A stretch of 31,071 bases of DNA from Cytophagales bacterium (GCA_038218385.1 JBBRKB010000001.1:1-31071); one strand, 5' to 3'; positions 846 to 27,129 are shown, counted from the stretch's first letter. Numbers and translations are program-made. The notes: generated by a model not told the origin, from the letters alone.

Positions 846-854
846 ATAAGCGCT

Positions 855-4654: not shown

Positions 4655-4673
4655 ACTCACTGTCTTGCTTTCA

Positions 4674-5300: not shown

Positions 5301-5557
5301 CTGAAGTCTTTTAAAGGTCTGTCAATAACGGCACTTGCTAAATACATTCTGGTCTCGGGTAAAAATTTAGCATTCAGCAAAACTTCCCTTACTTTCTCAT
5401 CACCGTAATACCTTCGGCAATTACGAATATCATCTACATCACCGCGTTCAAATACCCGTTCGATGACAAAGTTCGCCTTTGCATCGTAGTCAATATTTTC
5501 AAAGACCACATCCCAGAAAATACGTTTATGAAAAATTGGTTTTGGCTTATCTGACAT
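5255..5557 (-). CDS. DUF6922-like protein, putative antitoxin partner of the AbiEii gene
   Basis: IFWDV...FVIERVFERGD...YYG pattern, 100 aa. It sits directly upstream of the AbiEii gene and overlaps it by 46 nt. Confidence 0.8.
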   Translation of the reverse strand: MSDKPKPIFHKRIFWDVVFENIDYDAKANFVIERVFERGDVDDIRNCRRYYGDEKVREVLLNAKFLPETRMYLASAVIDRPLKDFRCYTLRQSNPTLFPY

Positions 5558-5561
5558 ACAA

Positions 5562-5569
5562 CAAAGATA
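5562..5569 (-). promoter_or_regulatory. Bacteroidota -7 promoter element (TATCTTTG) for the DUF6922-AbiEii pair
   Basis: Exact TAnnTTTG match on the minus strand, ending 4 nt before the ATG at 5557. No well-spaced -33 TTTG seen. Confidence 0.55.
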
Positions 5570-5615
5570 CAGGAACCAATTTCGTTTTACCGCTAATCAA
5601 CAAACAAATACGTTT

Positions 5616-5682
5616 CCCCTCTCCTTTTTTTTGGAGAGGGGCGCACACATTTTCAACTAGCAGACAAGTGGCCGGGGTGAGG
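5616..5682. repeat. REP-like GC-rich palindromic element (CCCCTCTCC-T8-GGAGAGGGG ... GCCGGGGTGAGG)
   Basis: Perfect 9-bp inverted repeat at 5616-5624/5633-5641 with a T8 loop, followed by GGGGTGAGG at 5674-5682. It is GC-rich within an AT-rich intergenic region. Confidence 0.6.
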
Positions 5683-5728
5683 CTTAAGACAAGCAACCCT
5701 CCTTTACAACTTTTGCCCGTGTATTTGT

Positions 5729-5736
5729 TATCTTGC
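5729..5736 (+). promoter_or_regulatory. Possible -7 variant (TATCTTGC) upstream of the acyl-CoA dehydrogenase
   Basis: TAnnTTGC variant 28 nt before the ATG at 5765. A similar variant precedes the second TA pair. Confidence 0.35.
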
Positions 5737-5764
5737 ATTTACCTAAACGTTTTAAAATATTCAC

Positions 5765-6904
5765 ATGAACTTTCAACTGACCGAAGAACAACTGGCAGTG
5801 CAGCAAGCAGCGAGGGATTTTGCCCAAGCTGAATTATTGCCCGGCGTAATTGAGCGTGACACTCATCAGAAATTTCCCAAAGAACAAATCAAAAAGATGG
5901 GAGAACTTGGTTTCATGGGGATGATGGTCGATCCGAAATATAATGGTGGCGGAATGGATACCATTTCGTATGTGCTGGCCATGGAAGAAATTTCCAAGAT
6001 TGATGCCTCTGCATCGGTGTGTATGTCGGTTAATAATTCACTTGTCTGTTGGGGTCTGGAGAAACATGGCAGTGAAGAACAGAAAGAAAAATATTTAAAG
6101 CGCCTGGCCACCGGTGAAATCATCGGTGCGTTTTGTCTCTCTGAACCGGAGGCGGGCTCCGATGCCACTAGTCAACATACAACTGCTGAAGATAAAGGCG
6201 ATTACTATTTATTGAACGGCACAAAAAACTGGATAACCAATGGCAACAGCGCAAGTGTATATTTGGTGATTGCACAAACAGACGCATCAAAAAAACATAA
6301 AGGCATAAATGCATTGATTGTAGAAAAGGAAATGCCGGGTTTTGTTGTTGGGAAGAAAGAAGACAAGATGGGCATTCGCGGGTCAGACACACACTCGTTA
6401 ATGTTCACCGATGTAAAAGTTCCGAAGGCCAACCGCATAGGTGAAGACGGCTTCGGTTTTACGTTTGCCATGAACACATTAAATGGCGGCCGTATTGGTA
6501 TTGCCTCACAAGCGTTGGGAATTTCTGCCGGTGCCTACGAGTTGGCCTTGAAATATGCGAAAGAAAGAAAAGCCTTCGGGAAAACTTTGTCGGAACATCA
6601 GGCGATACAATTCAAGCTTGCCGAGATGGCCACACAGATTGATGCTGCAAGACTTTTAGTCTGGCAAGCCGCTTCATTAAAAGATCAGAACAAAGACTTC
6701 GTAAAAGCAGCAGCGATGGCAAAATTATTTGCTTCTGAAATTGCCCAATCCGTAACAACGGAGGCGGTGCAAATTCACGGAGGCTATGGTTATGTAAAAG
6801 AGTACCATGTTGAACGACTCATGCGCGATGCTAAAATTACGCAGATCTATGAAGGCACTTCGGAGATCCAGCGGATGGTAATCTCTCGGGAAATAATCAG
6901 GTAA
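5765..6904 (+). CDS. Acyl-CoA dehydrogenase (short/branched-chain, butyryl-CoA dehydrogenase-like)
   Basis: GAFCLSEPEAGSDA, LNGTKNWITN, GGRIGIASQALG, QIHGGYGY and IYEGTSEIQ (catalytic Glu) motifs. Confidence 0.96.
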   Translation: MNFQLTEEQLAVQQAARDFAQAELLPGVIERDTHQKFPKEQIKKMGELGFMGMMVDPKYNGGGMDTISYVLAMEEISKIDASASVCMSVNNSLVCWGLEKHGSEEQKEKYLKRLATGEIIGAFCLSEPEAGSDATSQHTTAEDKGDYYLLNGTKNWITNGNSASVYLVIAQTDASKKHKGINALIVEKEMPGFVVGKKEDKMGIRGSDTHSLMFTDVKVPKANRIGEDGFGFTFAMNTLNGGRIGIASQALGISAGAYELALKYAKERKAFGKTLSEHQAIQFKLAEMATQIDAARLLVWQAASLKDQNKDFVKAAAMAKLFASEIAQSVTTEAVQIHGGYGYVKEYHVERLMRDAKITQIYEGTSEIQRMVISREIIR

Positions 6905-6910
6905 CAATAA

Positions 6911-6960
6911 AAAATGACGAAGGCAAAATGACGCCTGCCTGCCGCAGGCAGGAATGACAA
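6911..6960. repeat. Palindrome CCTGCCTGCCGCAGGCAGG embedded in AATGAC repeats; may act as a bidirectional terminator between convergent genes
   Basis: 9-bp inverted repeat around a single central C at 6934-6952. AATGAC occurs at 6913, 6927 and 6953. Confidence 0.65.
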
Positions 6961-7008
6961 ATTAATGGTAGCTCTATAATTCATTATGTAAACTTTGAAA
7001 GGTTGCTA

Positions 7009-7767
7009 TTACTTCGAAACGTTTTGGTTCCACTCGTAAAGTTTCTCTGAAACTTCAATTAAAAACTCCGGTGTTTTCTCAAGGGCATTGCCAATCACGA
7101 TCATATCAGCTCCCGCTTCAAGTGCGGCTATGGCTTTGCGTGAAGTGTTTAATCCTCCACCAACTATAAGGGGAACTTTCACTGCTTTACGAACAGCACT
7201 GATCATCTTCTGACTAATGGCCACATCTGCACCACTGCCAGCGTCCATGTAAATAGATTGCAAGCCTAGCATCTCACCAGCCATGGCGGTACAAGCAGCA
7301 AGCGAATACTTATCGTCTGGAATAGGAGTAGTGTTACTAATGTAAGCAACTGATGTGGTGCGACCCGAATTAATCAACATGTATCCCGTTGGGATAACTT
7401 CAAGTCGTGTATTTCTAATGATGGGTGCAGCGATTACATGTTGACCTATCAACAATTCAGGATTTCTTCCTGAGATCAAAGACAAGAACAATAACGCATC
7501 TGCACTGGAATCAATTTGAATGGAATTGCCAGGGAACAACACAACTGGTATAGAAACATTTTCCTTAATGTATTTGACAACCTCAGAAAGATTTGTGGTG
7601 GTCACCAAACTTCCGCCTACAAAAAAGAAGTCAACACAATTTTCGTTCGCCAAATTAATCAGCTGATGAAGCTTGGGGACATCATCAATCTTATCCGGAT
7701 CAACCAATACGGCAATCGATTTTTTCCCCGCCTGTCTTCGCTGTTGTAAGGTTTCAAGAATGGTCAT
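7009..7767 (-). CDS. Geranylgeranylglyceryl/heptaprenylglyceryl phosphate synthase (group II, PcrB/GGGPS family)
   Basis: VLVDPDK, FFVGGS, LFPG, SLISGRNPELLIGQH, IPTGYMLI, YMDAGSGA and VGGG TIM-barrel motifs; 252 aa. Confidence 0.93.
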   Translation of the reverse strand: MTILETLQQRRQAGKKSIAVLVDPDKIDDVPKLHQLINLANENCVDFFFVGGSLVTTTNLSEVVKYIKENVSIPVVLFPGNSIQIDSSADALLFLSLISGRNPELLIGQHVIAAPIIRNTRLEVIPTGYMLINSGRTTSVAYISNTTPIPDDKYSLAACTAMAGEMLGLQSIYMDAGSGADVAISQKMISAVRKAVKVPLIVGGGLNTSRKAIAALEAGADMIVIGNALEKTPEFLIEVSEKLYEWNQNVSK

Positions 7768-8158
7768 CCGTTCGCGTTTGCGTTGCTTGTTGTTCGAGGT
7801 ACTCCATCAATTTTTCTTTTGCCAAACTTAAAAGAAATGTTGTTGCCTGGCTTATCACCATGGCACCAATACCCGCGAAGGCTTCTGAAAAAAGTGATAC
7901 GTGTTGTTCATCAGACGGTTCTTCCGAAACATACGATGCTTTTGTATTTCTCTTTTTGTTCTTTCCTTTTGATTTCTTTCCAAGTTGCGTTACCAATAGA
8001 TACGTTACCACTAACGCACCGCCAATGATGGCCGTGTTGGTTAAGATTTTCTCTGTTCTTTTTGAGAACAGCTCGACCTCATCCTCAAGGGCAGCCCGCT
8101 GAGCAGCTGATCGCTTGAGTAATTTTCCTTTCGGGTCTTCTGATTCCAGTAGTTCCAT
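7754..8158 (-). CDS. Conserved hypothetical membrane-anchored protein (YqjK-like position in the operon)
   Basis: 134 aa with an N-terminal helical region, one hydrophobic segment (TAIIGGALVVTYLLV) and a basic tail. It abuts the upstream gene (1 nt gap) and overlaps the GGGPS gene by 14 nt. Confidence 0.7.
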   Translation of the reverse strand: MELLESEDPKGKLLKRSAAQRAALEDEVELFSKRTEKILTNTAIIGGALVVTYLLVTQLGKKSKGKNKKRNTKASYVSEEPSDEQHVSLFSEAFAGIGAMVISQATTFLLSLAKEKLMEYLEQQATQTRTDDHS

Positions 8159-8159
8159 G

Positions 8160-8516
8160 CTACTTTGGTTTTGACTTCGTTAATTCTGTTAATTGTTTTT
8201 CTATATATGCCGTAATGTCTCCTTTAAAAAGGAATACCCCTAACCCTATCAGTACATATAAAAACGATACTATTAAAAAACCACTGACATCGCCAACCCA
8301 ATGGCCTAAATAAAAGGCGAGGGCAAAGCTTGAAAGCATAAGCACAAAGAAAAGCATAAAGGCAAGTAACACCCCCACCACAGTTTTAGACAAAATTTTT
8401 GCTACGTCTTGCTTAACCTCCATCTTAAGAAGTTCAGCACGCGTCTCAATGTAACCCGTCAGGTTAGAGATCAATCCTTCGATCTTAAGAAATTTTACGA
8501 TTAGGTCTTTAAACAT
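8160..8516 (-). CDS. 'Phage holin family' (YqjE/holin-X-like) two-TM membrane protein
   Basis: GYIETRAELLKMEV pattern followed by two TM helices; 118 aa. Confidence 0.75.
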   Translation of the reverse strand: MFKDLIVKFLKIEGLISNLTGYIETRAELLKMEVKQDVAKILSKTVVGVLLAFMLFFVLMLSSFALAFYLGHWVGDVSGFLIVSFLYVLIGLGVFLFKGDITAYIEKQLTELTKSKPK

Positions 8517-8671
8517 TTGTTCTTAATCTAGTGGAATTTAAAACTTTTTTACACGGCATCATTATCTCACTAAGTTAGCATCTTCTGTTGTTCATTTGCT
8601 CATGTGCCACTGGAAAATATAACACGTTAACCAACAAACTTGTTTCAATCACTCAAATATGAAAAGGGATG

Positions 8672-9859
8672 TTAACTCTGGAGCTCTGCAATAGCCATCC
8701 ACGCCATCAGGCCTGTGCTTATAGCCAACGCATCTTCATCAATATCAAAAGTGGGAGTGTGCACATAGGAGCTAATCCCTTTAGCATCGTTGCGCGTACC
8801 CAGTCGATAAAAGGAAGCTGGAATAATTTGTGAATAAAAAGCAAAATCTTCAGCACCTAACGTGATGTCGATGTCAACCACATTATCCTCACCCACATAT
8901 TCAGTAGCGGCCTGCTTAATTCTTCTGGTGAGCTCAGGATTGTTTTCGAGATATGGATATCCCCTTGAAATTTCTACTTCACATCTACCTCCCATTCCTT
9001 CGGCAAGACTCTCTGCCATCTTTTTTATTTTATCCAATGCAGCATTTCGCCATTCTTCATTCATGGCACGAAATGTACCTGCAATGTTTACTTCATTGGG
9101 AATGATATTGGTAGCGCCATGTCCGATAATGTTTCCAAACGTAAGAACGGTGGGTTGCCTTGGATTGGCATTACGGCTTATGATCTGCTGAAGCGCAATG
9201 ATAATGTGTGATGCAATAACGATGGGATCAATTGCTAAATCGGGAGCAGCACCATGTCCACCTTTACCAATTACTTTTAAATAAATTTCGTCAGCGCTTG
9301 CCATGTACATTCCTTCTCGAAAACCGATTTTTCCTGCTGGCAATAATGGAAACACATGTTGCCCAATGATGGACGCGGGGCGCGGATTTTCAAGCGCGCC
9401 ATCGCGGATCATGTAGGAAGCACCTCCAGGATTTTTTTCTTCTCCAGGTTGAAATAAAAAACGAACGGTTCCTTCAAAATCATTTTTAATCGTTTGTAAT
9501 ATGTGCGCTGTACCAAGCAACGATGAGGTATGAACATCATGACCACACGCATGCATCACACCTTCATTTATAGATTTGTAAGAAACCTGGTTTGCCTCCA
9601 CTATTGGCAATGCATCCATATCTGCACGTAAAGCAATTATTTTCTTATCCGGATTTTTACCCGTCACTTCGGCAATCAATCCGGTTGTTGCTATGCCCGT
9701 TGGCTCAATTCCGAATGAGCGAAGTTGCTCAGCTACGTATTTAACCGTGTTGAATTCTTTATAGGATAATTCAGGATTGGCGTGAAGATGTCTTCTCTGT
9801 TCTACCGTTTGGCTATGGTAGGTATGGGATAAAGATTTTATACGATCGAGAAGACTCAT
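8672..9859 (-). CDS. M20D-family amidohydrolase (N-acyl-amino-acid amidohydrolase/HipO-like)
   Basis: RRHLHANPELS, RADMDALP, HACGHDVH, FQPGEE, GAEDF and HTP motifs. Confidence 0.93.
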   Translation of the reverse strand: MSLLDRIKSLSHTYHSQTVEQRRHLHANPELSYKEFNTVKYVAEQLRSFGIEPTGIATTGLIAEVTGKNPDKKIIALRADMDALPIVEANQVSYKSINEGVMHACGHDVHTSSLLGTAHILQTIKNDFEGTVRFLFQPGEEKNPGGASYMIRDGALENPRPASIIGQHVFPLLPAGKIGFREGMYMASADEIYLKVIGKGGHGAAPDLAIDPIVIASHIIIALQQIISRNANPRQPTVLTFGNIIGHGATNIIPNEVNIAGTFRAMNEEWRNAALDKIKKMAESLAEGMGGRCEVEISRGYPYLENNPELTRRIKQAATEYVGEDNVVDIDITLGAEDFAFYSQIIPASFYRLGTRNDAKGISSYVHTPTFDIDEDALAISTGLMAWMAIAELQS

Positions 9860-9914
9860 ATGTACATGTAATTATTTATCACCTAAGAAATTCACCTCGT
9901 TTGAAATAAAAGAT

Positions 9915-10427
9915 TTAATTGATTTCAATTTTATCAGGCACCAAGATGGCGCTTGGAAAGCGTTTTTTAATAGACTGAAAATCCTTTTGGGCATCCAATC
10001 GTGAATAATATTTGCCTGCCTTCACCCTGAAATTAGGTTGAGTGTATTGAACCTCTGATTCGATATCGGGTAAGGCAACAGTGAGATCCTTTCGTGTTGC
10101 CAACGCCGCCTCGCGGTCAAGACCTGAATAAATTTGAATGGTAAACCCATCAATGAACCGCGTGTTCAGATTGAATCTATCAATGCTATCCAAAATATTA
10201 TTCAACGGCTTGTTGATGGTGTATTTTGGTTCAACATATTTTGCTTTGTGCGTATTGACATTCGTCTCCATCGGATTGGATTGCCTCGTTGGCATTTCAA
10301 TAGCTGGCCTCAACACAGAAAGATCTTCAGAATATTTTGTACCCTGTGTAGAAGATGTTTTCTTCGGTGTAGCACAACCGGCTAGAAATAGTAGCAGGTA
10401 GATGGATGGGTGTCTATAAGTTCTCAT
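9915..10427 (-). CDS. SPOR-domain lipoprotein
   Basis: Lipobox LAGC at residues 15-18; C-terminal GFTIQIYSG...YTQPNFRVKAGKY...FPSAILV SPOR pattern. Confidence 0.82.
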   Translation of the reverse strand: MRTYRHPSIYLLLFLAGCATPKKTSSTQGTKYSEDLSVLRPAIEMPTRQSNPMETNVNTHKAKYVEPKYTINKPLNNILDSIDRFNLNTRFIDGFTIQIYSGLDREAALATRKDLTVALPDIESEVQYTQPNFRVKAGKYYSRLDAQKDFQSIKKRFPSAILVPDKIEIN

Positions 10428-10492
10428 ATATCTCCATTGTGTATGTTGCAGCTGCTAGCTTCTAGCGGTGTGAGCATGGGCTTTGTGTGCGC

Positions 10493-13400
10493 TTATTCAA
10501 TAATGATACACTTGTTGCTTCGAATGTCTTCTTCTACTTTTTTGAATTTTACATCCTTCAATACACGCCCATCGGTGTATTGCACCGTTACTTTATCATT
10601 TCGATTAGCCACTTTTTCAGATTTGACGGGCATCACCTTTTCTTGCGGTGGACGATCTTGTTGCTGCTGGCCGCCTCCATTTAGCAACGAACGCGATTCT
10701 TCTTTCTGCTCACTTAGCTTTACCCTCCGTTGTGACCGTGCTTCCTGAACCTGATCGGGAGCCTGAACCGGAATATCCGCCTTCATTAGGAAGGCAGTAG
10801 TATCCTCATTTACCTTGGCAATGAATCGTTTGAACAATTCAAACCCTTCAAACTTATAAATCAGCAAGGGGTCCTTTTGTTCATACACGGCGTTCTGCAC
10901 GGACTGCTTTAGATCGTCCATCTCACGCAAATGTTCTTTCCATTGCTGATCAATGATGGCGAGGGTCAACATTTTTTCCATCGCCTTCACAAGCTCTGTG
11001 TTATTTGTATCCACACACTTCTGAAGGTTTGCAGCAACACCTATCTGCTTATTTCCATCTGTGAACGGAACCAAGATGTTCTCTACTGTTGCTCCACGTG
11101 TTTTATAAATTTCGGAAATAACAGGCATTGCTTTCTCGGCAATGTGTTTGTTCTTTTTGTGATAATGATCCAGCGCCTTGTGGTAAAGATCATCTGTAAT
11201 AAAATTCTGATCTTTTGCTTCGAATTCATCTTTTGATAATTCATAATCAAGACCCAAAACACTCAACGCATTTAACCTGAGGCTTTCATAATCGTTCGAT
11301 GCTTTTGCATTGGTAACGGTATCTTCACATGTATCATAAAGCATGGTGAGAATATCAAGTTCTAATCGTTCTCCAAACAACGCATTTCTTCTTCGCTTAT
11401 AAATTACTTCACGCTGGGAGTTCATTACGTTATCATACTCCAGCAATCGCTTACGAATGCCGAAGTTATTCTCTTCAACTTTTTTCTGCGCGCGCTCAAT
11501 TGAACTCGTCACCATACTGTGTTGAATCACTTCGCCTTCTTTCAAGCCAAGCTTATCCATGATGCGGGCAATGCGCTCAGGCATAAAGAGGCGCATCAAA
11601 TTGTCTTCGAGCGAAACGTAAAATTGAGAAGTACCCGGATCACCCTGACGTCCGGAACGTCCGCGCAACTGTCTGTCTACACGGCGTGACTCGTGGCGCT
11701 CGGTACCAATGATAGCAAGGCCTCCGGCTGCTTTTGATTCTGGTGTCAGCTTGATATCCGTTCCACGACCCGCCATGTTTGTGGCAATGGTTACGGTACC
11801 CGATTGGCCCGCTTCAGCTACAATCTCGGCTTCGCGTTGATGTTGCTTTGCATTCAGTACGTTGTGTTTGATTTTTTTCATTTGCAACATGCGGCTGATC
11901 AACTCTGAAATTTCAACCGATGTGGTACCTACCAGAACAGGTCTTCCTTTTTCTGTAAGTTTCACGATCTCTTCAATGGCTGCATTGAATTTTTCACGCA
12001 CCGTTTTGAAAACAAGGTCGTCCGTATCGTTCCTGGTGATGGGGCGATTGGTAGGAATCACAACAACATCCAATTTATAGATGTCCCACAATTCACCGGC
12101 TTCTGTTTCTGCTGTACCTGTCATGCCCGCAAGCTTGTGGTACATGCGGAAATAATTTTGAAGGGTAATGGTGGCATAGGTCTGTGTTGCATCCTCCACC
12201 TTCACATTTTCTTTCGCTTCTATCGCCTGGTGTAACCCATCAGAGTAACGCCTTCCATCCATAACACGACCCGTCTGCTCATCGACAATCTTAATCTTGC
12301 CATCAACGATAATGTATTCTGTATCTTTTTCGAAAAGGGTGTATGCTTTTAGCAGTTGGTTCACGCTGTGGATACGCTGTGTCTTTATCTGATAGTCACG
12401 AATAAGGTCTTCTTTCTTTTCAAATTGCTCCTTCTCGTTTAACGATGAATCCCTCTCAATTTTTGTTAACTCTGTACCGATCTCCGGAAGGATGAAAAAA
12501 TTTGAATCTTCCCCTTCGCCCGTGATCAGGTCTATACCTTTCTCGGTTAAATCAACGCTGTTGTCTTTTTCATCAATAATAAAATAAAGCGGGCTATCTG
12601 CCTCAGGCATCATTTTCTTATTGTCCTGCAAGTAGAAGTTTTCTGTCTTTTGTAGAATAGACTTCATGCCTGTTTCACTCAAATATTTTATTAACGGCTT
12701 ATGCTTCGGCATACCGCGAAAGGCACGGAACAAGGGAAGCCCGGCTTCTTTTTCATGGCCATCGCCCATTAATTTTTTGGCATCAGTCAGGTATTGCATA
12801 ATCACTTTCTTCTGCGCTTCCACCAACTTAAAGATGCGTGGCTTGAGGTCATAGAATTCGTGTTCATCTCCTTTTGGAATAGGGCCGGAAATAATGAGCG
12901 GTGTACGCGCTTCATCTATCAACACCGAATCAACCTCATCCACCATGGCATAATGATGGCCACGTTGCACCAATTCATTGGTTTCGCGTGACATGTTATC
13001 GCGCAGGTAATCAAAACCAAACTCATTGTTGGTTCCATAAATAATATCTGCCTGGTATGCGTTGCGTCTTTCGGTGGAGTTGGGCTCATGCCTGTCAATG
13101 CAATCAACCTTTAAGCCGTGGAACATGAACAACGGTGCCATCCACTCGCTGTCACGCTTGGCGAGGTAATCGTTTACCGTTACAATGTGTACCGATCGCT
13201 TTGCGAGCGCATTTAAAAATGCAGGTAAAGAAGCTACTAAAGTTTTTCCTTCACCTGTTGCCATCTCAGCAACTTTACCTTCATGCAAAACGACACCACC
13301 GATCAATTGCACATCATAATGCACCATGTCCCATGTCGTCATGCTGCCGGCGGCTAACCATTTGTTTGCCCATCGGGCTTTATCGCCTTCGATCGTTATG

Positions 13401-17972: not shown

Positions 17973-18004
17973 TAACTAGGGTTTAAGGGTGGACAAATTG
18001 GGGG

Positions 18005-18036
18005 CAAAAATAAACACAGATTTAGAATACGATCAA
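18005..18036 (-). promoter_or_regulatory. Putative sigma-A promoter for carB: TTG-N21-TATTTTTG
   Basis: On the minus strand, TTG (18036-18034) is followed by a 21-nt spacer and TATTTTTG (18012-18005). This matches the Bacteroidota -33/-7 consensus. Confidence 0.6.
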
Positions 18037-18205
18037 CATTCGCAGAATTAATTATCCATTTTAATCCCGGGCAGAGAAGTCCATTCAATTGACCAGCCTA
18101 AAGGCGAAAAATGGGTGCATCACTTTTCTTAAAAAAGAAGAAATTTCAACCGTTTAAGGAAAAGGTGGGTGCATGGACTTGCAATTTGACTGATTTTTAA
18201 ATTCC

Positions 18206-18225
18206 TTGTGCATTCGATTGCACAA
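18206..18225. promoter_or_regulatory. LacI-type operator-like palindrome TTGTGCATTCGATTGCACAA
   Basis: 20-bp palindrome with a central CG and 9 of 10 pairs matching. It ends 3 nt before the ATG of the GMC gene. Confidence 0.6.
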
Positions 18226-18228
18226 AAC

Positions 18229-19923
18229 ATGAACCTGACTATAGATGCCGCCAAAAAAATGACCTACGATGCTATCGTTGTGGGCTCCGGCATAAGTGGC
18301 GGATGGGCGGCTAAAGAACTGTGTGAGAAGGGTTTGAAAGTTTTAATGCTGGAACGTGGACGCAATGTTGAGCATCCCAACTACCTAACCACTACCTGGG
18401 ATCCCTGGCAATTTGAACACCGTGGGCAACTTACTATGGAGGATAGGAAGAAATTTCATGTTCAAACCCGACACTATTCCATCAGTGAAGAAAATAAGCA
18501 CTTCTATATTAATGACCTTGAAAATCCCTACGAGGAAACCAAACGTTACGATTGGATAAGGGCAGATGTACTCGGTGGTCGATCCCTTCTTTGGGCACGC
18601 CAATGTTATCGCTTGAGTGATTTGGATTTTGAGGCTAACCTAAAAGATGGTATCGCTATCGATTGGCCCATTCGCTATAAAGAAATTGAACCGTGGTATA
18701 ATTATGTAGAACCCTTTGTTGGCATCTCGGGCCAGGCTGAAAACATACCCCACCTTCCTGACAGCAAATTCCTTCCGCCGATGGAGTACAACTGTGTGGA
18801 AAAGGATTTCAAAAGTAAGCTTGAGAAAAATATTCCGGGAAGAAAAGTCACCATAGGCCGGGTGGCAAACCTCACGCAACCTGTAAAAGGCAGAGGTCAA
18901 TGTCAATATAGAAATTTATGTTATCGCGGTTGTCCTTATGGAGCGTACTTTAGTACAAATGCAAGCACCATTCCCGCAGCCTACGCTACCAACAACCTTA
19001 CGGTGTTATCAAATTCGTTGGTGAATAAGGTAATCTATGATGAGAAAAAGAAAAGGGCAACAGGCGTTGAAGTAATCAACACCGAGACCAACGAAGTGAC
19101 CGAATATTTTTCACGCATTCTTTTCTTAAATGCTTCTACTTTAGGTACCACATTTATTCTTCTCAACTCAACATCCTCACGATTTCAAAATGGATTAGGA
19201 AATGAAAGTGACCAGGTGGGAAGAAATTTGATGGATCATCATAAAGGAAGCAGTGCTTCTGCAGTTGTAGAAGGCTTTGAAGATAGCTATTACTTCGGAA
19301 GAAGACCAAACGGAATTTATATTCCCCGGTTCAGAAACCTTCACGAAAAGCAAACGAATTTTATTCGAGGATTTGGTTTTCAGGGAAGTGCTGGGCGAAG
19401 TGGCTGGAGCGCACATCTTAATACAACTTCTTTAGGTAGTGATTTAAAAGAAAAGGCGACAGAGCCAGGTTCCTGGAGCATGGGGCTTGGAGGCTTTGGC
19501 GAGTGTCTTCCGTATGCCGATAACAGAGCAACGTTGGATGGATCCAAGACCGACAAATGGAGCCGTCCTGTTCTTAATGTGGATTGTGAGTTTAGAGAAA
19601 ATGAAAAAGCCATGAGCGTTGACATTGCAGACTCTGCAGTAGAAATGCTGGAGGCAGTCGGCTATAAAAATGTAATAAGAAACCATTCCATGTCCTTTCC
19701 GGGAAACGCCAATCATGAAATGGGTACCGCACGAATGGGAAAGGATCCCAAGACTTCTGTGCTGAACAAGTTTAACCAAATGCATGAGGTGCCCAATGTA
19801 TTTATTACGGATGGTTCCTTCATGGTCTCATCCTCTTGTGTTAATCCTTCCCTCACGTACATGGCGATGACGGCTCGCGCATGCGATTATGCGGTGAACG
19901 AAATGAAAAAACATAATCTCTAA
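18229..19923 (+). CDS. GMC-family FAD oxidoreductase (glucoside 3-dehydrogenase/LacA-like large subunit)
   Basis: YDAIVVGSGISGG FAD motif, LGGRSLLWAR, Cys cluster CQYRNLCYRGC, NHEMGTARMG and DGSF...VNPSLT. The ATG at 18229 is preferred over the GTG at 18208. Confidence 0.92.
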   Translation: MNLTIDAAKKMTYDAIVVGSGISGGWAAKELCEKGLKVLMLERGRNVEHPNYLTTTWDPWQFEHRGQLTMEDRKKFHVQTRHYSISEENKHFYINDLENPYEETKRYDWIRADVLGGRSLLWARQCYRLSDLDFEANLKDGIAIDWPIRYKEIEPWYNYVEPFVGISGQAENIPHLPDSKFLPPMEYNCVEKDFKSKLEKNIPGRKVTIGRVANLTQPVKGRGQCQYRNLCYRGCPYGAYFSTNASTIPAAYATNNLTVLSNSLVNKVIYDEKKKRATGVEVINTETNEVTEYFSRILFLNASTLGTTFILLNSTSSRFQNGLGNESDQVGRNLMDHHKGSSASAVVEGFEDSYYFGRRPNGIYIPRFRNLHEKQTNFIRGFGFQGSAGRSGWSAHLNTTSLGSDLKEKATEPGSWSMGLGGFGECLPYADNRATLDGSKTDKWSRPVLNVDCEFRENEKAMSVDIADSAVEMLEAVGYKNVIRNHSMSFPGNANHEMGTARMGKDPKTSVLNKFNQMHEVPNVFITDGSFMVSSSCVNPSLTYMAMTARACDYAVNEMKKHNL

Positions 19924-19946
19924 AATTTAAATACCAAACCAACGAT

Positions 19947-21299
19947 ATGAAAAAATACATTTTACTTTTTTTACTTCTGCCTACACTCGCCTTTGCTCAA
20001 AAAAAATCAACCGGGTGGCGCGAACTCTTCAATGGAAAAGATTTGAAAGGTTGGAAGCAACTGAATGGCCAAGCGAAATATGAATTCAAAAATGGAGAAC
20101 TGATTGGTACAACCGTGGCAGGTACACCCAATTCATTTTTGGTTACCGAAGAAACATTTGGTGATTTCATCCTTGAGCTTGAATTTAAAAATGATGGTAA
20201 AACAAATTCAGGCATTCAATTTCGCAGCGAGAGCACGCCAGATTATATGAATGGAAGAGTGCATGGATATCAAATGGAAATTGATCCATCAGAACGTCAA
20301 TGGACAGGTGGGATTTATGATGAAGCAAGAAGGCAATGGCTTTACCCACTTGAGTATAATCCGGAAGGAAAAAAAGCGTTTAACCCTGAAGGTTGGAACA
20401 CCGTTCGCATTGAGTGCATCGGCAACATCATGCGCACATGGATCAATGGCAAACCAGTGGCCCATCTGGTAGACAACATGACTCCCAAAGGTTTTATCGC
20501 TCTGCAAGTACACTCCATCAAAGACAAAACAGACGAAGGCAAGCAGGTGCGTTTTCGAAATGTACGAATCAAAACAACAGACCTTACACCGTCACCGTGG
20601 GATACCATTTTTGTGATGAACCTTGTGCCCAATGAATTGACCGCACAGGAAAGTAAAAATGGGGTGAAACTTTTGTGGGATGGCAAAACAAAAACCGGAT
20701 GGAGAGGAGCTTACAAAACTGAATTCCCGGCAAAGGGTTGGGAAATTGAAAACGGAGAGTTGTCTGTTTTAAAATCAACTGGAGCGGAGTCTGAAAATGG
20801 TGGCGACATCATCACAACAGAAGAGTTCGCTGCCTTTGATCTCCAGTTTGAATTCAAACTAACCGAAGGCGCAAACAGCGGTGTAAAATATTTTGTAACG
20901 GAGAATGAAGGCAACAAAGGTTCTGCCATTGGCCCTGAGTATCAAATTTTGGATGATGAAAAACATCCCGATGCAAAATTGGGAGCGGTTGGCAACCGTA
21001 CGCTAGCCTCGCTTTATGATCTCATTCCATCTATAAAAAATCCCAGAGGACTTCATAAAATTGGTGAGTGGAATAATGGCCGGGTAATTGTTTATCCTGA
21101 CAACCGTGTTGAACATTGGCTGAATGGTAACAAGGTTGTTGAATATCAAAGAGGCACACCTATTTATTATGCACTTGTGGCACGAAGCAAGTATGCCAAG
21201 TGGGAAGGTTTTGGTATGGCTGAAAAAGGCCACATCCTCATTCAAGATCATGGCGACAATGTTTCCTTTAGAAGTATTAAAATCAAAACATTAAAATAA
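19947..21299 (+). CDS. Exported tandem DUF1080 (3-keto-disaccharide hydrolase family) protein
   Basis: Sec signal (LAFA|Q). Two repeats: LFNGKDLKGW...NSGIQFRS...GFIALQVH...FRNVRIK and LWDGKTKTGW...NSGVKYF...GHILIQDHG...FRSIKIK. Confidence 0.9.
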   Translation: MKKYILLFLLLPTLAFAQKKSTGWRELFNGKDLKGWKQLNGQAKYEFKNGELIGTTVAGTPNSFLVTEETFGDFILELEFKNDGKTNSGIQFRSESTPDYMNGRVHGYQMEIDPSERQWTGGIYDEARRQWLYPLEYNPEGKKAFNPEGWNTVRIECIGNIMRTWINGKPVAHLVDNMTPKGFIALQVHSIKDKTDEGKQVRFRNVRIKTTDLTPSPWDTIFVMNLVPNELTAQESKNGVKLLWDGKTKTGWRGAYKTEFPAKGWEIENGELSVLKSTGAESENGGDIITTEEFAAFDLQFEFKLTEGANSGVKYFVTENEGNKGSAIGPEYQILDDEKHPDAKLGAVGNRTLASLYDLIPSIKNPRGLHKIGEWNNGRVIVYPDNRVEHWLNGNKVVEYQRGTPIYYALVARSKYAKWEGFGMAEKGHILIQDHGDNVSFRSIKIKTLK

Positions 21300-21347
21300 A
21301 CGAAATCAATTTATCCAATCAATACGTACATAAACACACATACTAAA

Positions 21348-22694
21348 ATGAAAAAATCAAGAAGGGATTTTATTAAGACATCCAGTGCCGCTACCATGGG
21401 CGCGCTTGCCTTTAGTGCCTCAAGTTATGGGCGCATCATAGGTTCCAACGACAGGGTCAATGTAGGCGTGGTCGGATTTTCAGACCGTTTTAAAAGTTCA
21501 TTGCTTCCGAGTTTTTTGGGTCATCACAAAGAACTTAACTACGACATGATTGCTGTGTCTGACATTTGGAAATATAAAAGAGAAACAGGTCAGTCCGTAC
21601 TGAAAGAGAAACTCGGTCATGACATTAAAGCATGTAGGAACAACGATGAGTTGTATGCCATGAAAGACATTGATGCCGTGATCATCAGCACTGCCGATTT
21701 CCAACATGCATTGCATTGTGCCGAAGCTGTTAACAACGGTAAAGACGCGTATTGTGAAAAGCCCTTTGCAGAAACCATGGAAGATGCGCGCATTGCATTG
21801 AAAGCTGTTCGCGACAATAAAAAAATTGTACAGATTGGATCACAACGGAGAAGCGGAGCGAACTATCATGCTGCAAATGAATTTGTGAAGTCTGGAAAAT
21901 TCGGACCTATCACTATGGTAGAATTAACATGGAATGTCAACCAGCCCGGCCGTTGGAGAAGACCCGACATGGTAGCGAAGATGCGAGAGCAAGACACCGA
22001 TTGGACACGCTTTTTGATGAACCGCCCCAAGGAAGCATTCGATGCGCGCAAACATCTTGAGTTTAGATTATTCTGGCCGTATTCATCAGGTCTTCCCGGC
22101 CAATGGATGTGCCATCAAATTGATACAGTACATTGGTTCAGTGGCTTGAGCCATCCACGTAGCGCCGTTGCCAATGGGGGAATTTACGTTTGGAAAGACG
22201 GACGTAGAAATTGGGATACCTTAACAGCTGTGTTTGACTATGGGCCACAAGATGATTTGACGAAAGGATTTCAGGTAACCTTCGCATCGCGTATGCACAA
22301 TGGTGATGAAAAACCTGCCGAAATTTATTATTCAAATGGTGGTGAAATGAACTTGATCACCGATAAGGTTTCGCCCACAGGTGGCCTTTCAGAGCGCCAT
22401 GCAAAAGCGATGGGAATGCAGGCCAACCTACTCCCCAATGTTGACCTTAGTGCCAATGCAGAGAAAGTTGTAGCATCTGCAGACACAGGAGCTGATAACT
22501 TAACCTCAAGTCATATGCGTAACTGGATGGAGTGTGTAAAGAGCCGCAAGGAACCTAATGCACCGGTTGAAGCAGGTTACTCGCATGCTATTGCAAGCAT
22601 CATGTCTACTGCCGCCGCTCATACCGGCTTGAAAGCAACCTTTGATGAAAAAACGCAGGAAGTAATGGTCGGTGGAAAAGCATTTAAATATTGA
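21348..22694 (+). CDS. Tat-exported Gfo/Idh/MocA-family NAD(P)-dependent oxidoreductase
   Basis: SRRDFIK twin-arginine signal, DAVIISTADFQH, YCEKP, VQIGSQRRS and QWMCHQID motifs. Confidence 0.92.
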   Translation: MKKSRRDFIKTSSAATMGALAFSASSYGRIIGSNDRVNVGVVGFSDRFKSSLLPSFLGHHKELNYDMIAVSDIWKYKRETGQSVLKEKLGHDIKACRNNDELYAMKDIDAVIISTADFQHALHCAEAVNNGKDAYCEKPFAETMEDARIALKAVRDNKKIVQIGSQRRSGANYHAANEFVKSGKFGPITMVELTWNVNQPGRWRRPDMVAKMREQDTDWTRFLMNRPKEAFDARKHLEFRLFWPYSSGLPGQWMCHQIDTVHWFSGLSHPRSAVANGGIYVWKDGRRNWDTLTAVFDYGPQDDLTKGFQVTFASRMHNGDEKPAEIYYSNGGEMNLITDKVSPTGGLSERHAKAMGMQANLLPNVDLSANAEKVVASADTGADNLTSSHMRNWMECVKSRKEPNAPVEAGYSHAIASIMSTAAAHTGLKATFDEKTQEVMVGGKAFKY

Positions 22695-22704
22695 TTACTA
22701 AAGA

Positions 22705-23745
22705 ATGAGAAGATTTATAACTATGTGGGTAGCTGTACTAACGGCTACCTGCTCATTTGCTCAGAAACAAGAAGGGTTTAGTCTTAAAGAAGATGCCGCC
22801 AAAAAACAAGTGGATGTGCTTTACAATGGCAAGCTCCTTACAGCGTATTGCCATTATGATTCCGTGATGAAGCCTGTATTGTTCCCGATCAATACGTTAT
22901 CTGGGATCACGATAACACGTGGATATCCATTGGCACCGCGCGCTGGAGAACGTGTTGACCACCCTCATCATATTGGTCTTTGGTTAAACTATGAATACGT
23001 TAATGGCCTCGACTTTTGGAATAATTCAACCGCCATTCCGTATGACAAGCGTTCACATTATGGAACCATCTATCACGACAGGATAGTTAAAAGCAATGCA
23101 ACGAAGAAGGATGCAACGCTGGAAGTTTCGGCACAATGGAAAAACCATGCTAACATGCCGTTGCTGCTTGAGACTACACAGTATCATTTTACTGTAGCTG
23201 ATGGAAGCTTCATCATTGACAGGACAACAACCCTTCGATCACTAAATGAAGATGTTTTTTTAAAAGATGTTAAAGACGGGTTCCTTGGATTGCGTGTCAC
23301 AAAAGAACTTGAAATGCCATCGAATGAATCAGTAAAATATGTTGATGATAAAGGGAATGTAACCGAAGTGCCTGCCGTGAACAACGCCAATGTTACGGGT
23401 GACTATCTCAACAGTGAAGGAATCAAAGGTGATGCCGTGTGGGCAACACGCGGTGTGTGGGCAACTTTGTTTGGAAAGAAAGATGGCAAAGATGTTTCCG
23501 TAACCATCATTGATCATCCGAGCAATATGGGTTACCCTACCTATTGGCATGCACGCGGCTATGGTTTGTTTGCCGCCAATCCAATTGGACAAGCAGCCTT
23601 TAGCAAAGGAAAGGACACCCTCAATTTAATCATTAAAAAAGGTGAGTCTGTAACGTTTCGTTTTCGCGTAGTTATTCATGAAGGTGCAAACCTTACCCCT
23701 GAACAGATCAATCAATTAGCAAAAGAGTTTGGCAAGACGAAGTAG
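22705..23745 (+). CDS. Exported DUF6807 / 'PmoA family' beta-sandwich protein, function unknown
   Basis: Sec signal (CSFA|Q); KPVLFPI, DHPHHIGLW, DHPSN...YPTYWHARGYGLFAANP motifs. Confidence 0.82.
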   Translation: MRRFITMWVAVLTATCSFAQKQEGFSLKEDAAKKQVDVLYNGKLLTAYCHYDSVMKPVLFPINTLSGITITRGYPLAPRAGERVDHPHHIGLWLNYEYVNGLDFWNNSTAIPYDKRSHYGTIYHDRIVKSNATKKDATLEVSAQWKNHANMPLLLETTQYHFTVADGSFIIDRTTTLRSLNEDVFLKDVKDGFLGLRVTKELEMPSNESVKYVDDKGNVTEVPAVNNANVTGDYLNSEGIKGDAVWATRGVWATLFGKKDGKDVSVTIIDHPSNMGYPTYWHARGYGLFAANPIGQAAFSKGKDTLNLIIKKGESVTFRFRVVIHEGANLTPEQINQLAKEFGKTK

Positions 23746-23751
23746 TCTAGG

Positions 23752-26700
23752 CTAACGCGCTACAACAACCTTTTTAATTATGGATTGAGTAGCAAAGTTT
23801 AATCGCACCAAATACATCCCGTTAGGAAAATTCCCTAACGGGATTTTTATTTTATTACCCAATACATTTCCGTCAACATTGACCTGAGTCATTGTCTGGC
23901 CAAGTCCATTTTGAATGGCTATAGATTTCGGCATTGTATTTCCATAGTCAATTGTCAGATCATTTTCATGCACGGGATTGGGATAGACCATGATTTGATT
24001 AATCAAATCATCTTCCGTTGACGTCACCACATCTTGAACGTGAAGCTTGTCAATTGCCCAGCCCCATGCATGTATGGATGCATCGCTAAACAGTCGAAAC
24101 CGTAACACAATATTATCGCCATCACTGAAGCTTCCATTATCCAATAGATTAATAGTGTGTCTCTTGTACTTTGCTGATGAAACTACAGAACTTTGTGGCA
24201 AAACATTCAACCATGCATTTTCTCTTTTGGCATCATACCCATCTTCCAACGCTAACCATGAAAGCCCCTCATCTTTTGATGCTTCCACAACAACATAATC
24301 TTTAAAGGCAGGTGTACCGAAAATAGCTTCGGCAGGATGATCTTCCACAATGGCAATTTCATCAAACTGAACGTAAGGGTTTTCTTCTCTAATATTAATT
24401 TTTTTCTTTAAGGTGAAAGTGAACTCCGTTTCGTTTTCAAAACCAAACCCAATGGGATAGGGATGAATGGTGTGAATGGCGTTGTTTGAAAATCGATCTG
24501 GTTTTGTTAGTGTAAAAAAGTTTCCAACAAAATCTGTAGCAGAAATAGTAAAATCATTCGCATACGAATCTACAACGGTATTAAAATCAATTACTTCAAC
24601 ATTAAAATAGGGCAAGTTCGCTGGCATCAACGATACATTACCAGCACTGTCAAGTACCTGGAAGCGATACGCCACACTATCTCCCGATTTCAGGTTTGCA
24701 AAATCCAATGCAAACTCCACGATGGCATCAGTGCCTGTTACATCAACTGTTTGGGATGGTTGAAGTTGCCCATTTATTTTATGATCGAAGATTACCTTTT
24801 GAAGTTTTCGTTCATCATGCAACTTTACCGGAATGGAAACCGGCATTGTATTTTCCATAACATAATCAATGTGGTTGTGCAGGATGGTAGGGGCTGCATC
24901 ATCAACTTGTATTTTTACATTATCAATCGCCCATCCCCATCCGTTTCCAAAAGGGTCGGAATGTAGGCGAAAACGAAAAACAACTTCATCGCCCACATTA
25001 AATGTATGTAGAATATTGATGTCTCTTCTCCTGAATAAAAGAGGATCGCCATCTGAGAAAGTTGCGTTTTCATACCGTGCCTGCCACGGTGCATAGTCGC
25101 GTGAGTCATAGCCATCTTGCAAAGGCAGCCATGTAGCGCCACCATCATTGGAACCTTCTACAATTACGTAATCATAAAAATCTTCGCTGCCAAAAGGTGA
25201 GCCGGGTTCACCAGGTTCTACTAAAACAATTTCATCAAAACTTATTTCGGAAATCTTACTAAGCGAAATAGGGACGCGAAGTTGGTATGTAAAGTCCAGC
25301 GAATTATTTGCACCTGCCTCTGGGTAAGGATGAACCGAATGTATGGCGGGGTTACTAAATCCACTGGGTGTGGTGACGGAAAAATTATTCCCAATAAAAT
25401 CAGCCGAAGGCGTGTTAAAATTATTTAGATAATACACTTGTGTGGGGGCCAAACCAATCACCGGTATCCTGTAATAATCAGTAACTGGATCTATGGCTAC
25501 ATTTTTAGCCGCCGCATTATCCTTCGCCATAATTTTATATTTTATTTCATCCCCATCCTGAAGTTGGCCAGCTCCAAACGAAATTATCTTTCTGTATTGA
25601 TACGTTGTGGAACCTGTGAACACATCGTTACTGGAACCAATCAACTCCAACGGTGCCACCTGGCTTGATCCGTTATTAATAGAATATTCAACACTCACTT
25701 CAGCTAAGCCACTACTTTCTATAATCTCTGCATCAATACTAAAATCATTGTCGAGGTATGATAAAAAAGTTTTGGGTGTATGTACAATAAGCGGCGCTAC
25801 ATTATCCGCCCCTACTGAAAATGAATACGTTGTATTTTGCGGTCCCTTGTTAGGTACTAGCTGAGTGGGCTGATAAATTTCTCCCGGACTTTTTACCACC
25901 CGTCCAAAGCTGTCCGTTATTTTAATGGTATACGAATATATTTTTGGAGCATTGGGCGCTGGCAACGTGAAAGCATATTCATCTGGAGTTCCTGTGGCCA
26001 TCATGATCGCTTCCACAGCAGCGCTACCATTAACGGAATAAGTCAACACCACATTGTTGTTTGCAAACGTGTATCCATCCGACCCGTCTGTTTTAATCAC
26101 CGCTTTAAATTCAATTGGAAGGGACACATTTTCCCGGTCTTTTAAATGATCGTGATCAATGTATGTGGTAAAAACCCAACCCATACTGGCGAAAACATTT
26201 TTTACGATTAGGCCAGGGTCGTGATTCACTTCACGTGTATTGATAAAAGGCCGCATCAAAGAATTAGGCGAGCCCTGTGGAAAGGCAGAAGCATCTAAAT
26301 GTGCAATGCTGGAGCCATCATTAAAAACATTGGGCGCATATAGCTTTGCCAATGTATTGCCGAAAGTCGTCCTTATAAATAAATTGCCACTGACAAGTTG
26401 ATTGCCCATCTCAGTAGATGGTGAGTTAAAATTCTGATAAAGATTTTGTGTTGAGCCATTCTCAATCATGAGATCGAAAGGAAAAGGAATACCATTTGTA
26501 AATTCACCATACGCACCCATAGCATTGTTCATTTCAAATGTGCTGGTGAAGCCAAGGCCATGACCCAGCTCATGAAGCACAACCGTGATAAAATCATGCT
26601 GCCCGACTGCGGGTGTTCCTGTAGTTTGAAAATACCAATTCGTAGAGCTGTTGAATTGGGTCACAATTTCATATTCATTGGACCCATTTAGTTCTTGGTC

Positions 26701-27129
26701 GGCCAACTTCTCAGCCAATGCCCCTGGGTAGTACACATTATAATTCGGGGCACCTTTAAAATTGGATGACCAAAATGAGGGGCCGGCGGATCCCAATACA
26801 CCTGTTGGCAAATTTGTCCAAACCGCTGCAACACGAATGGGTCTTGGTGATGAAATTAAACTCTCCCAAATGGATACGGCATGATCGAATGCCGCTTGGG
26901 CTTCGGGTGTAAAACCGATGTATTCTACTATGAATGTCGAAGTCTTAATCCTGCCACTACTTTTTCTATTCCTAAATGCGGCCGGTTCGTGATTGTGTGT
27001 ATGGTTGCCTTCAATATAGTCAGCGTAACAAACTATGGGAAGTTTGGTGCCTGTGAGCTTAACAATGTTTTGCGCGGAACAGAACGTTGTGAGGATTGAA
27101 AAACAAAAGAAAGGTATTTTTGAATTCAT
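23752..27129 (-). CDS. T9SS-secreted multidomain zinc metalloprotease-like protein
   Basis: Signal peptide (FCSA|Q); HELGHGLGF zinc motif; repeated Ig-like and beta-sandwich modules; T9SS type A CTD (MVYPNPV...GMYLVRL...KKVVV). Confidence 0.88.
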   Translation of the reverse strand: MNSKIPFFCFSILTTFCSAQNIVKLTGTKLPIVCYADYIEGNHTHNHEPAAFRNRKSSGRIKTSTFIVEYIGFTPEAQAAFDHAVSIWESLISSPRPIRVAAVWTNLPTGVLGSAGPSFWSSNFKGAPNYNVYYPGALAEKLADQELNGSNEYEIVTQFNSSTNWYFQTTGTPAVGQHDFITVVLHELGHGLGFTSTFEMNNAMGAYGEFTNGIPFPFDLMIENGSTQNLYQNFNSPSTEMGNQLVSGNLFIRTTFGNTLAKLYAPNVFNDGSSIAHLDASAFPQGSPNSLMRPFINTREVNHDPGLIVKNVFASMGWVFTTYIDHDHLKDRENVSLPIEFKAVIKTDGSDGYTFANNNVVLTYSVNGSAAVEAIMMATGTPDEYAFTLPAPNAPKIYSYTIKITDSFGRVVKSPGEIYQPTQLVPNKGPQNTTYSFSVGADNVAPLIVHTPKTFLSYLDNDFSIDAEIIESSGLAEVSVEYSINNGSSQVAPLELIGSSNDVFTGSTTYQYRKIISFGAGQLQDGDEIKYKIMAKDNAAAKNVAIDPVTDYYRIPVIGLAPTQVYYLNNFNTPSADFIGNNFSVTTPSGFSNPAIHSVHPYPEAGANNSLDFTYQLRVPISLSKISEISFDEIVLVEPGEPGSPFGSEDFYDYVIVEGSNDGGATWLPLQDGYDSRDYAPWQARYENATFSDGDPLLFRRRDINILHTFNVGDEVVFRFRLHSDPFGNGWGWAIDNVKIQVDDAAPTILHNHIDYVMENTMPVSIPVKLHDERKLQKVIFDHKINGQLQPSQTVDVTGTDAIVEFALDFANLKSGDSVAYRFQVLDSAGNVSLMPANLPYFNVEVIDFNTVVDSYANDFTISATDFVGNFFTLTKPDRFSNNAIHTIHPYPIGFGFENETEFTFTLKKKINIREENPYVQFDEIAIVEDHPAEAIFGTPAFKDYVVVEASKDEGLSWLALEDGYDAKRENAWLNVLPQSSVVSSAKYKRHTINLLDNGSFSDGDNIVLRFRLFSDASIHAWGWAIDKLHVQDVVTSTEDDLINQIMVYPNPVHENDLTIDYGNTMPKSIAIQNGLGQTMTQVNVDGNVLGNKIKIPLGNFPNGMYLVRLNFATQSIIKKVVVAR

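Follow-up and report, generated by a model that had tools for sequence, protein, structure and literature searches.

We describe a four-gene operon at positions 18229-23745 of a 31,071-nucleotide (nt) stretch of DNA from a Cytophagales bacterium (GCA_038218385.1, JBBRKB010000001.1:1-31071), referred to here as the window; it makes up contig C1 of a Bacteroidota metagenome-assembled genome that is 85% complete. The operon encodes, in order, a GMC-family dehydrogenase, a tandem DUF1080 protein, a Gfo/Idh/MocA (Gfo) dehydrogenase with a twin-arginine translocation (Tat) signal, and a DUF6807 protein. We read it, at roughly even odds (about 0.5), as a periplasmic module for cleaving sugars off glycosides by way of keto-sugar intermediates, with DUF6807 as an optional accessory keto-sugar enzyme. 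The tandem DUF1080 protein and the Tat-Gfo form the conserved core of the module, DUF6807 is a frequent, tightly coupled and dispensable third component, and the GMC gene is an addition particular to this lineage. Re-calling of the open reading frames (ORFs) bears out the four co-directional genes of an initial annotation made from the sequence, with intergenic gaps of 23, 48, and 10 nt.

In the proposed route, the exported Gfo enzyme, holding a tightly bound nicotinamide cofactor, would oxidize the glycoside, C3 being the most likely position. Elimination of the aglycone and rehydration of the resulting glycal would then fall to the tandem DUF1080 protein, in line with the known activity of its relative BT2157/AL2, and reduced Gfo would be recycled through reduction of the released keto-sugar. 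DUF6807 may act on the keto-sugar intermediate or product as an optional helper of Gfo, and the GMC flavoprotein may be an extra dehydrogenase that could supply oxidized sugar. Oxidation followed by elimination and hydration is a recently described alternative to glycosidases that cleaves alpha-, beta-, thio-, and pseudo-glycosides. This kind of pathway is already known, and the tandem DUF1080 architecture already has a solved structure; the window offers a clean example in four genes, built on a conserved core, evidence against DUF6807 being a lyase substitute, and a cultured relative, Chryseolinea serpens DSM 24574.

The DUF1080-Gfo core resembles known 3-keto-glycoside pathways

The tandem DUF1080 protein carries two domains, at approximately nt 20013-20573 and 20667-21287, that share 29% identity with each other; the initial annotation had called them non-identical. 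Over residues 23-450, the protein matches 4jqt (4e-159), a structural-genomics protein with the identical two-domain DUF1080 architecture and without functional assignment. Domain 2 matches the BT2157 structures 3osd and 8tda at about 7e-39 to 8e-39, and keeps the GGD, NSG, PEYQ, SLYD, and QDH positions, so that the BT2-type channel residues (Asp/Glu, Asn, Glu-x-Gln, Tyr, and Gln-x-His) are all present. Domain 1 is recognized by Pfam PF06439 but is divergent, with Gly replacing the Glu of Glu-x-Gln in a pairwise alignment with domain 2. DUF1080 enzymes are 3-keto-glycoside lyases acting on alpha-anomers, as well as hydratases, and the TIM barrels AL1/BT1 eliminate beta-anomers (Nasseri 2024, bioRxiv 10.1101/2024.03.25.586180).

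The Gfo protein begins with SRRDFIK followed by a hydrophobic stretch, a twin-arginine export signal. Its best solved relative is 8tdf/8tdh (8e-17). We take this structure for the AL3 of Nasseri 2024, since adding 29 to the chain index gives all five named AL3 residues; the PDB titles are silent on the matter. The best NCBIfam match, spanning residues 4-413, is NF058561, the BT_2158 glycoside 3-dehydrogenase family. Two AL3 site residues, Gln161 and His252, are kept in the HMMER alignment to 8tdf. The Tat-Gfo enzymes AL3 and BT3 carry a non-exchanging nicotinamide adenine dinucleotide (NAD), the recycling of which is rate-limiting. For AL3, recycling is restricted by furanose isomerization of 3-ketoglucose, the dehydrogenase being unable to use the furanose form, and re-oxidation by "specialized proteins such as cytochromes" is left possible (Nasseri 2024).

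The closest known systems are BT2156-BT2160 of B. thetaiotaomicron and AL1-AL5 of Alistipes (Liu 2021, PMC8121099; Nasseri 2024), which share with the present operon a Tat-Gfo beside an exported DUF1080 protein, the same site residues and a periplasmic location. They differ in that the present operon lacks the TIM-barrel lyase, the second, cytosolic Gfo and the SusR-type regulator, whereas its DUF1080 protein is a tandem of unlike domains, its Gfo belongs to a distant subfamily, and DUF6807 and GMC are added. The BT2157-like second DUF1080 domain, the placement of Gfo nearest 8tdf/8tdh and the BT_2158 family, and the clade-level linkage of DUF6807 to Gfo described below together uphold the variant 3-keto-glycoside pathway that the initial annotation had proposed.

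Gene linkage of Gfo, DUF1080, and DUF6807

Linkage was examined from both partners, and the analysis starting from Gfo is free of circularity. Among 150 evenly drawn Bacteroidota genomes, 10 have an orthologue of the operon's Gfo (60-73% identity). A tandem DUF1080 gene is directly adjacent to this orthologue in 7 of the 10, and in one more a single gene separates the two. DUF6807 directly follows the orthologue in 4, lies elsewhere in the genome in 3, and was not found in the remaining 3 (G083, G141, and G047). Both G141, which is from the same family as the window, and G047 are 100% complete and keep the orthologous DUF1080-Gfo pair without DUF6807. A GMC gene beside the Gfo orthologue was found in none of the 10 genomes. 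At the genome level, the 151 Bacteroidota divide into 8 with both the Gfo orthologue and DUF6807, 3 with the Gfo orthologue only, 1 with DUF6807 only, and 139 with neither, counts that are descriptive, as the genomes are related.

The converse analysis used 80 orthologous DUF6807 loci (45-61% identity), 75 of them from 17 families of Bacteroidota and 3 from Acidobacteriota; Planctomycetota and Verrucomicrobiota are represented through Atlas cluster labels only. The closest loci are from Roseivirgaceae, Cyclobacteriaceae, and Chryseolinea, in keeping with a Cytophagales host. In 42 of the 80 loci, Gfo is the same-strand gene immediately upstream, and in 47 it belongs to the operon. Other in-operon partners are DUF1080 (20 loci), a TIM barrel (4), and GMC (3), and the remaining neighbors are varied, with transporters, SusC/SusD, LacI regulators, and esterases among them. 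TIM barrels were labeled by best E value with a hidden Markov model made ad hoc, which weakly cross-matches Gfo (1e-8 to 1e-13), and Pfam confirmed one such label (L061). The median gap between Gfo and DUF6807 is 12 nt; gene calls in the fetched loci came from a simple ORF caller, and starts and gaps are approximate. A twin-arginine motif is present in 40 of 44 upstream Gfo proteins, and 77 of the 80 DUF6807 proteins have a hydrophobic N terminus.

The linkage is also seen in phylogeny. Of 78 Gfo proteins, taken from these loci and the host genome and placed in one tree, 47 form a clade with a Shimodaira-Hasegawa-like approximate likelihood ratio (SH-aLRT) support of 100, and all of its members are DUF6807-linked. 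The operon's Gfo falls inside this clade, and none of the host genome's other Gfo paralogues do. Divergent DUF6807 paralogues from the even Bacteroidota sample also adjoin Gfo genes of other subfamilies, and 8 of the 15 DUF6807 genes in that sample are Gfo-adjacent. As for three further divergent DUF6807 representatives, two lie on contigs of <2 kb and the context of the third was uninformative. Two close relatives (L037 and L038) have all four genes in this order between the same flanks, and GMC-Gfo-DUF6807 without DUF1080 is found in L036 and L039, the latter being the cultured C. serpens strain.

Some other arrangements were seen. In Algoriphagus-type loci (L061, L064, and L053), DUF6807 shares an operon with Tat-Gfo, a TIM barrel, and a flavoprotein of another kind, FAD_oxidored (PF12831). 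In Prolixibacteraceae-type genomes, a nucleoside-recognition (Gate) transporter-like gene is directly downstream of DUF6807 at seven loci, and in two of these (L096 and L113, from Mariniphaga metagenome-assembled genomes, positions ~4850-12360), SusC and SusD are directly upstream of DUF6807, with no Gfo nearby.

Conserved residues, fold, and fusions of DUF6807

The DUF6807 protein is a full-length member of PF14100, covering model positions 1-269 of 270, in a family that has 2,989 cluster representatives at an E value of <=0.001. The initial annotation had emphasized three conserved His motifs: DHPHH (nt 22957-22971), DHP (nt 23512-23520), and WHAR (nt 23545-23556). An alignment of 76 homologues supports most of these positions, namely D85 (73 of 76), H86 (69), H88 (69), D270 (70), H271 (69), W281 (66), and R284 (69), whereas H89 (52) and H282 (54) are more weakly kept. 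R72 and W105 are invariant, and conservation is at least 90% for D85, H86, H88, D188, K190, R197, D270, H271, N274, R284, Y286, and N292. This near-invariant pattern of charged residues looks like an active site.

An AlphaFold2 model of the protein (predicted local distance difference test score, 96.2; predicted template modeling score, 0.92) was compared to known structures with Foldseek, the comparison that the initial annotation had suggested. The matches are sandwich folds of the galactose mutarotase-like type, with E values down to 3e-6 and a probability of 1.0, and include mutarotases, GH36 N-domains, OpgD, PL17/PL26, and YidC. By Foldseek, the fold class matches that of galactose mutarotase/aldose 1-epimerase (1l7k, 1snz, and 1z45), the GH36 N-domain, OpgD, and the YidC periplasmic domain. 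Single-sequence and profile searches of the PDB with DUF6807 returned chance matches only. The nearest non-DUF6807 Atlas clusters, DUF4380 and YidC_periplas, are weak leads.

The former Pfam name of PF14100, PmoA, suggests methane monooxygenase, a candidate that is ruled out by fold and gene context. The model is a soluble beta-sandwich whose sole N-terminal helix is the signal sequence, and the neighbors belong to sugar metabolism, not to pmoCAB. We found no functional study of a DUF6807/PF14100/PmoA family protein in the literature searched. The only suggestive paper found (Cheng 2017, PMC5342196) describes two claimed "novel beta-galactosidases" whose operon includes a PF14100 gene. On the corresponding cosmid, Lac161, the PF14100 gene lies between the genes for these two, a dehydrogenase-HEAT-cytochrome c protein and a DUF377 protein, and the lactose-cleaving phenotype of Lac161 might reflect an oxidative route instead of hydrolysis.

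Natural fusions of DUF6807 are varied. It is fused to DUF1080, in both orders, and to a Gfo domain, and TIM barrel-DUF6807 proteins make up an Atlas cluster of 88 members. Further partners are a metallo-beta-lactamase fold domain, an S51 domain, GH88, and BNR (sialidase-like) domains. One Bacteroidota genome encodes a 699-amino-acid (aa) DUF6807-ThuA fusion with a Gfo gene adjacent (L179, G146:C5, positions 757-2853, minus strand). ThuA ("trehalose utilisation") is the partner of the ThuB 3-keto-disaccharide dehydrogenase. The ThuAB system of Agrobacterium/Sinorhizobium (cited in Liu 2021) likewise combines a Gfo-type enzyme with a partner protein of unassigned role; unlike that system, the present window has no ThuA. 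The host genome, which also encodes 8 DUF1080 domains and a second DUF6807, has on contig C246 (positions 894-4736, minus strand; L031) a 1,280-aa lipoprotein-like protein of DUF6807, DUF7133, HEAT, and C-terminal cytochrome c regions, followed by a Sde182 nucleoside-hydrolase-like gene. Its dehydrogenase-like DUF7133-HEAT-cytochrome c architecture is that of "Lac161_ORF7" (Cheng 2017), the operon of which has a separate PF14100 gene.

Evidence against the proposed reading and rival explanations

Several observations weigh against our reading. To begin with sampling, relatedness among the source genomes means that the 80 DUF6807 loci are not independent. The remaining points concern the chemistry of Gfo, the place of the lyase step, the redox partners, and the fold of DUF6807.

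The Gfo protein scores 95.7 bits against NF058561, for which the equivalog cut-off is 750, and thus stands outside the family as defined; C3 is the predicted site of oxidation. Moreover, three residues with which AL3 binds sugar, Arg192, Trp195, and Asp248, are matched by Asn196, Gln199, and Gln, although an Arg-Trp pair lies 6 residues downstream of the aligned site and the AL3 loop alignment may be shifted. Because of the low score and the apparent loss of three of the five AL3 residues, the present Gfo is best regarded as a probable distant subfamily relative to BT_2158/AL3. Fusions of DUF6807 to lactonases of two kinds also occur and point to C1 (lactone) chemistry. The changed AL3 residues and the lactonase fusions, together with the mutarotase-like fold of DUF6807, its fusion to a metallo-beta-lactamase fold domain and the existence of solved Gfo relatives (1h6a and 5a02) that are exported, hold bound NADP, and oxidize C1, would fit an aldose C1-oxidation unit. 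There, the mutarotase-like protein would supply the right anomer to an exported aldose 1-dehydrogenase with a lactone product, comparable to glucose-fructose oxidoreductase-type enzymes. We consider this very unlikely: the nearest characterized relatives of the Gfo are 3-dehydrogenases (8e-17 versus 4e-7 or weaker), the partner most strongly conserved beside it, DUF1080, has a BT2157-type site that is intact, DUF6807 is fused to DUF1080 and ThuA as well, and the operon has no lactonase gene.

A second difficulty is that 26 of the 47 Gfo-DUF6807 operons have neither DUF1080 nor a TIM barrel, which would fit DUF6807 being the processing enzyme itself. The initial annotation had set DUF6807 in place of the usual lyase and suggested that it may be a new lyase, hydratase, or epimerase of the pathway. 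On this view, it would do the job of the xylose isomerase-like TIM barrels of Bacteroides/Alistipes, for example, beta-anomer elimination. Its observation that no TIM-barrel gene is present holds, as Pfam finds no PF01261 match on contig C1. Numerous Asp, His, Arg, Lys, Asn, and Tyr residues of DUF6807 hardly vary, as would be expected of an enzyme, and the sandwich fold class also occurs in the polysaccharide lyases PL17 and PL26 and in OpgD, all Foldseek matches. The substitution itself does not fit, because DUF1080 already supplies both elimination and hydration, because the complete genomes G141 and G047 retain the DUF1080-Gfo pair without any DUF6807, and because DUF6807 coexists or is fused with both kinds of lyase. 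For the TIM barrels, the operons with TIM barrel, Gfo, and DUF6807 (L061, L064, and L111) and the 88-member fusion cluster indicate coexistence, not substitution, and about 22 PF01261 TIM barrels are encoded on other contigs of the same 85%-complete genome. Such a lyase-replacing role for DUF6807 is unlikely; we keep it as the main rival because those 26 operons encode no lyase nearby.

Third, DUF6807-cytochrome c fusions form three Atlas clusters of 58-100 members each and point to a redox role, and the operon's GMC protein has neither an export signal nor a partner subunit in the operon. Under a redox or docking explanation, DUF6807 would help re-oxidize the non-exchangeable cofactor of Gfo or link Gfo to a cytochrome c or an FeS flavoprotein, here the GMC protein. 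The 1,280-aa host protein, the DUF6807-ThuA fusion next to a Gfo gene, the natural Gfo-DUF6807 fusions, and the pairing of GMC and Tat-Gfo genes at two places in the host genome (the operon and contig C199) are all consistent with this, and re-oxidation by cytochromes is permitted by Nasseri 2024. Nonetheless, we hold it to be quite unlikely, given that the fold is of a sugar-binding sandwich type with no recognizable cofactor motif, that fusions to the non-redox sugar enzymes GH88, BNR sialidase-like, lactonase, and DUF1080 also occur, and that most DUF6807 loci have no cytochrome nearby.

Finally, the mutarotase likeness of DUF6807 is at the level of fold only, with TM scores of 0.3-0.45; the more than 10 mutarotases in the Foldseek list have E values of 5e-6 to 1e-3 and TM scores of only 0.3-0.4. 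Beyond the fold class, homology to the galactose mutarotase group was found neither by Pfam, which returned no match besides PF14100 and so no aldose 1-epimerase (PF01263) match, nor by profile-profile comparison, where hhalign of the 76-sequence DUF6807 alignment to 30 GalM proteins gave a probability of 0.8%. Since the Foldseek matches are for the most part accessory domains, found in GH2, GH36, GH38, and GH94 enzymes and in YidC, DUF6807 might be a noncatalytic carbohydrate-binding or scaffolding protein, like many mutarotase-like domains in glycoside hydrolases. Its dispensability in related genomes and its many different fusion partners would accord with that, yet the explanation is highly improbable for a stand-alone protein in which R72, D85, H86, H88, D188, K190, R197, D270, H271, and R284 form an active-site-like pattern.

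We return to DUF6807 as an accessory keto-sugar enzyme. Isomerization, whether of anomer, ring form, or epimer, is our tentative first choice for its chemistry because it accords with the fold, the dispensability, and the published furanose 3-ketoglucose bottleneck; it might, for instance, turn furanose 3-ketoglucose back into whichever form the dehydrogenase can reduce. A slightly more doubtful second choice is elimination or hydration on a different range of substrates. It is also possible, though far from assured, that DUF6807 keeps an exported Gfo with a non-exchangeable NAD or NADP turning over, either by rescuing furanose or wrong-anomer keto-sugar or, in the cytochrome c- and ThuA-fused relatives, by coupling to the respiratory chain. 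If true, such a role would explain why, in several phyla, DUF6807 accompanies sugar dehydrogenases that belong to unrelated families. DUF6807 is the most regular unexplained neighbor of Gfo dehydrogenases in environmental Bacteroidota, and knowing what it does would allow thousands of genes to be annotated and might fill in the rest of the pathway.

The GMC flavoprotein

Among solved structures, those nearest to the GMC protein are the large subunit of fructose dehydrogenase (7w2j) and a flavin adenine dinucleotide (FAD)-dependent glucose dehydrogenase (6a2u), at about 1e-37 to 1e-34. Both belong to heterotrimeric enzymes, the partner subunits of which are missing from the present operon. The GMC protein has a C-x5-C-x3-C motif (nt 18901-18933), kept in 4 orthologues, that resembles the motif of 3Fe-4S flavoprotein dehydrogenases. 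It is placed where glucose dehydrogenase has its 3Fe-4S cysteines and may bind such a cluster.

With Pfam, neither a small Tat-signal subunit (PF13618) nor a cytochrome c subunit was found in the window. The "LacA-type" description in the initial annotation thus stands for the GMC N- and C-terminal domains and the Cys-rich motif and fails for the small Tat and cytochrome c subunits, which are lacking in the operon. LacABC with DUF1080 of Caulobacter/Pedobacter (Price 2022, PMC9007349) similarly has a GMC flavoprotein beside DUF1080 in a context of glycoside use; it differs in having a LacB-type Tat small subunit and a LacC-type cytochrome c, both missing here, where the GMC protein also has no export signal of its own. 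The sole PF13618 gene of the genome adjoins a paralogous GMC gene on contig C199 (positions 1763-5706, minus strand), where the paralogue (35% identity), the Tat small subunit, and a Tat-Gfo of 491 aa are found.

Operon layout and flanking sequence

The coordinates are collected in Table 1. The GMC start was set at the ATG at 18229, in agreement with orthologue N termini (MNLN...); the longest ORF begins with GTG at 18208. The Sec-type N termini of the DUF1080 and DUF6807 proteins were called by eye and by hydrophobicity.

Table 1. Operon genes and adjoining noncoding features in the window
Feature	Position (nt)	Strand	Evidence
GMC-family FAD dehydrogenase gene	18229-19923	+	Pfam GMC_oxred_N and GMC_oxred_C; no signal peptide
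Tandem DUF1080 gene, predicted exported	19947-21299	+	Pfam PF06439, two matched stretches, 3e-88
Gfo/Idh/MocA dehydrogenase gene, Tat signal SRRDFIK	21348-22694	+	Pfam GFO_IDH_MocA
DUF6807 gene, predicted exported	22705-23745	+	Pfam PF14100, 248.4 bits versus cut-off of 27
Intergenic region between divergent carB and operon	17973-18228	+	Two GGGTGCAT copies inside
Terminator-like hairpin followed by T run	23816-23844	+	Consensus match only

Only two copies of GGGTGCAT occur in the 31-kb window, at 18113-18120 and 18167-18174, 54 nt apart and both within the 235-nt region upstream of the operon. Their number is not significant, being reached in 24 of 100 shuffles, and it is the shared location that is of interest; that the pair is a regulator-binding repeat or operator is speculation. 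The terminator-like hairpin lies 70 nt past the DUF6807 stop, within the 3' end of the convergent downstream gene, and the count of terminator-like sites in the region is not above that of shuffles. A sigma-70 promoter scan gave fewer sites than shuffles, with a sigma-70 model that is ill-suited to Bacteroidota.

The flanks are unrelated to the operon, with carB divergent upstream and a type IX secretion system (T9SS)-sorted protein encoded convergently downstream (23752-27129, minus strand). The latter, of 1,125 aa, has weak metalloprotease-like (NF038122) and Reelin-subrepeat matches, and the position of its gene is kept in the closest relatives.

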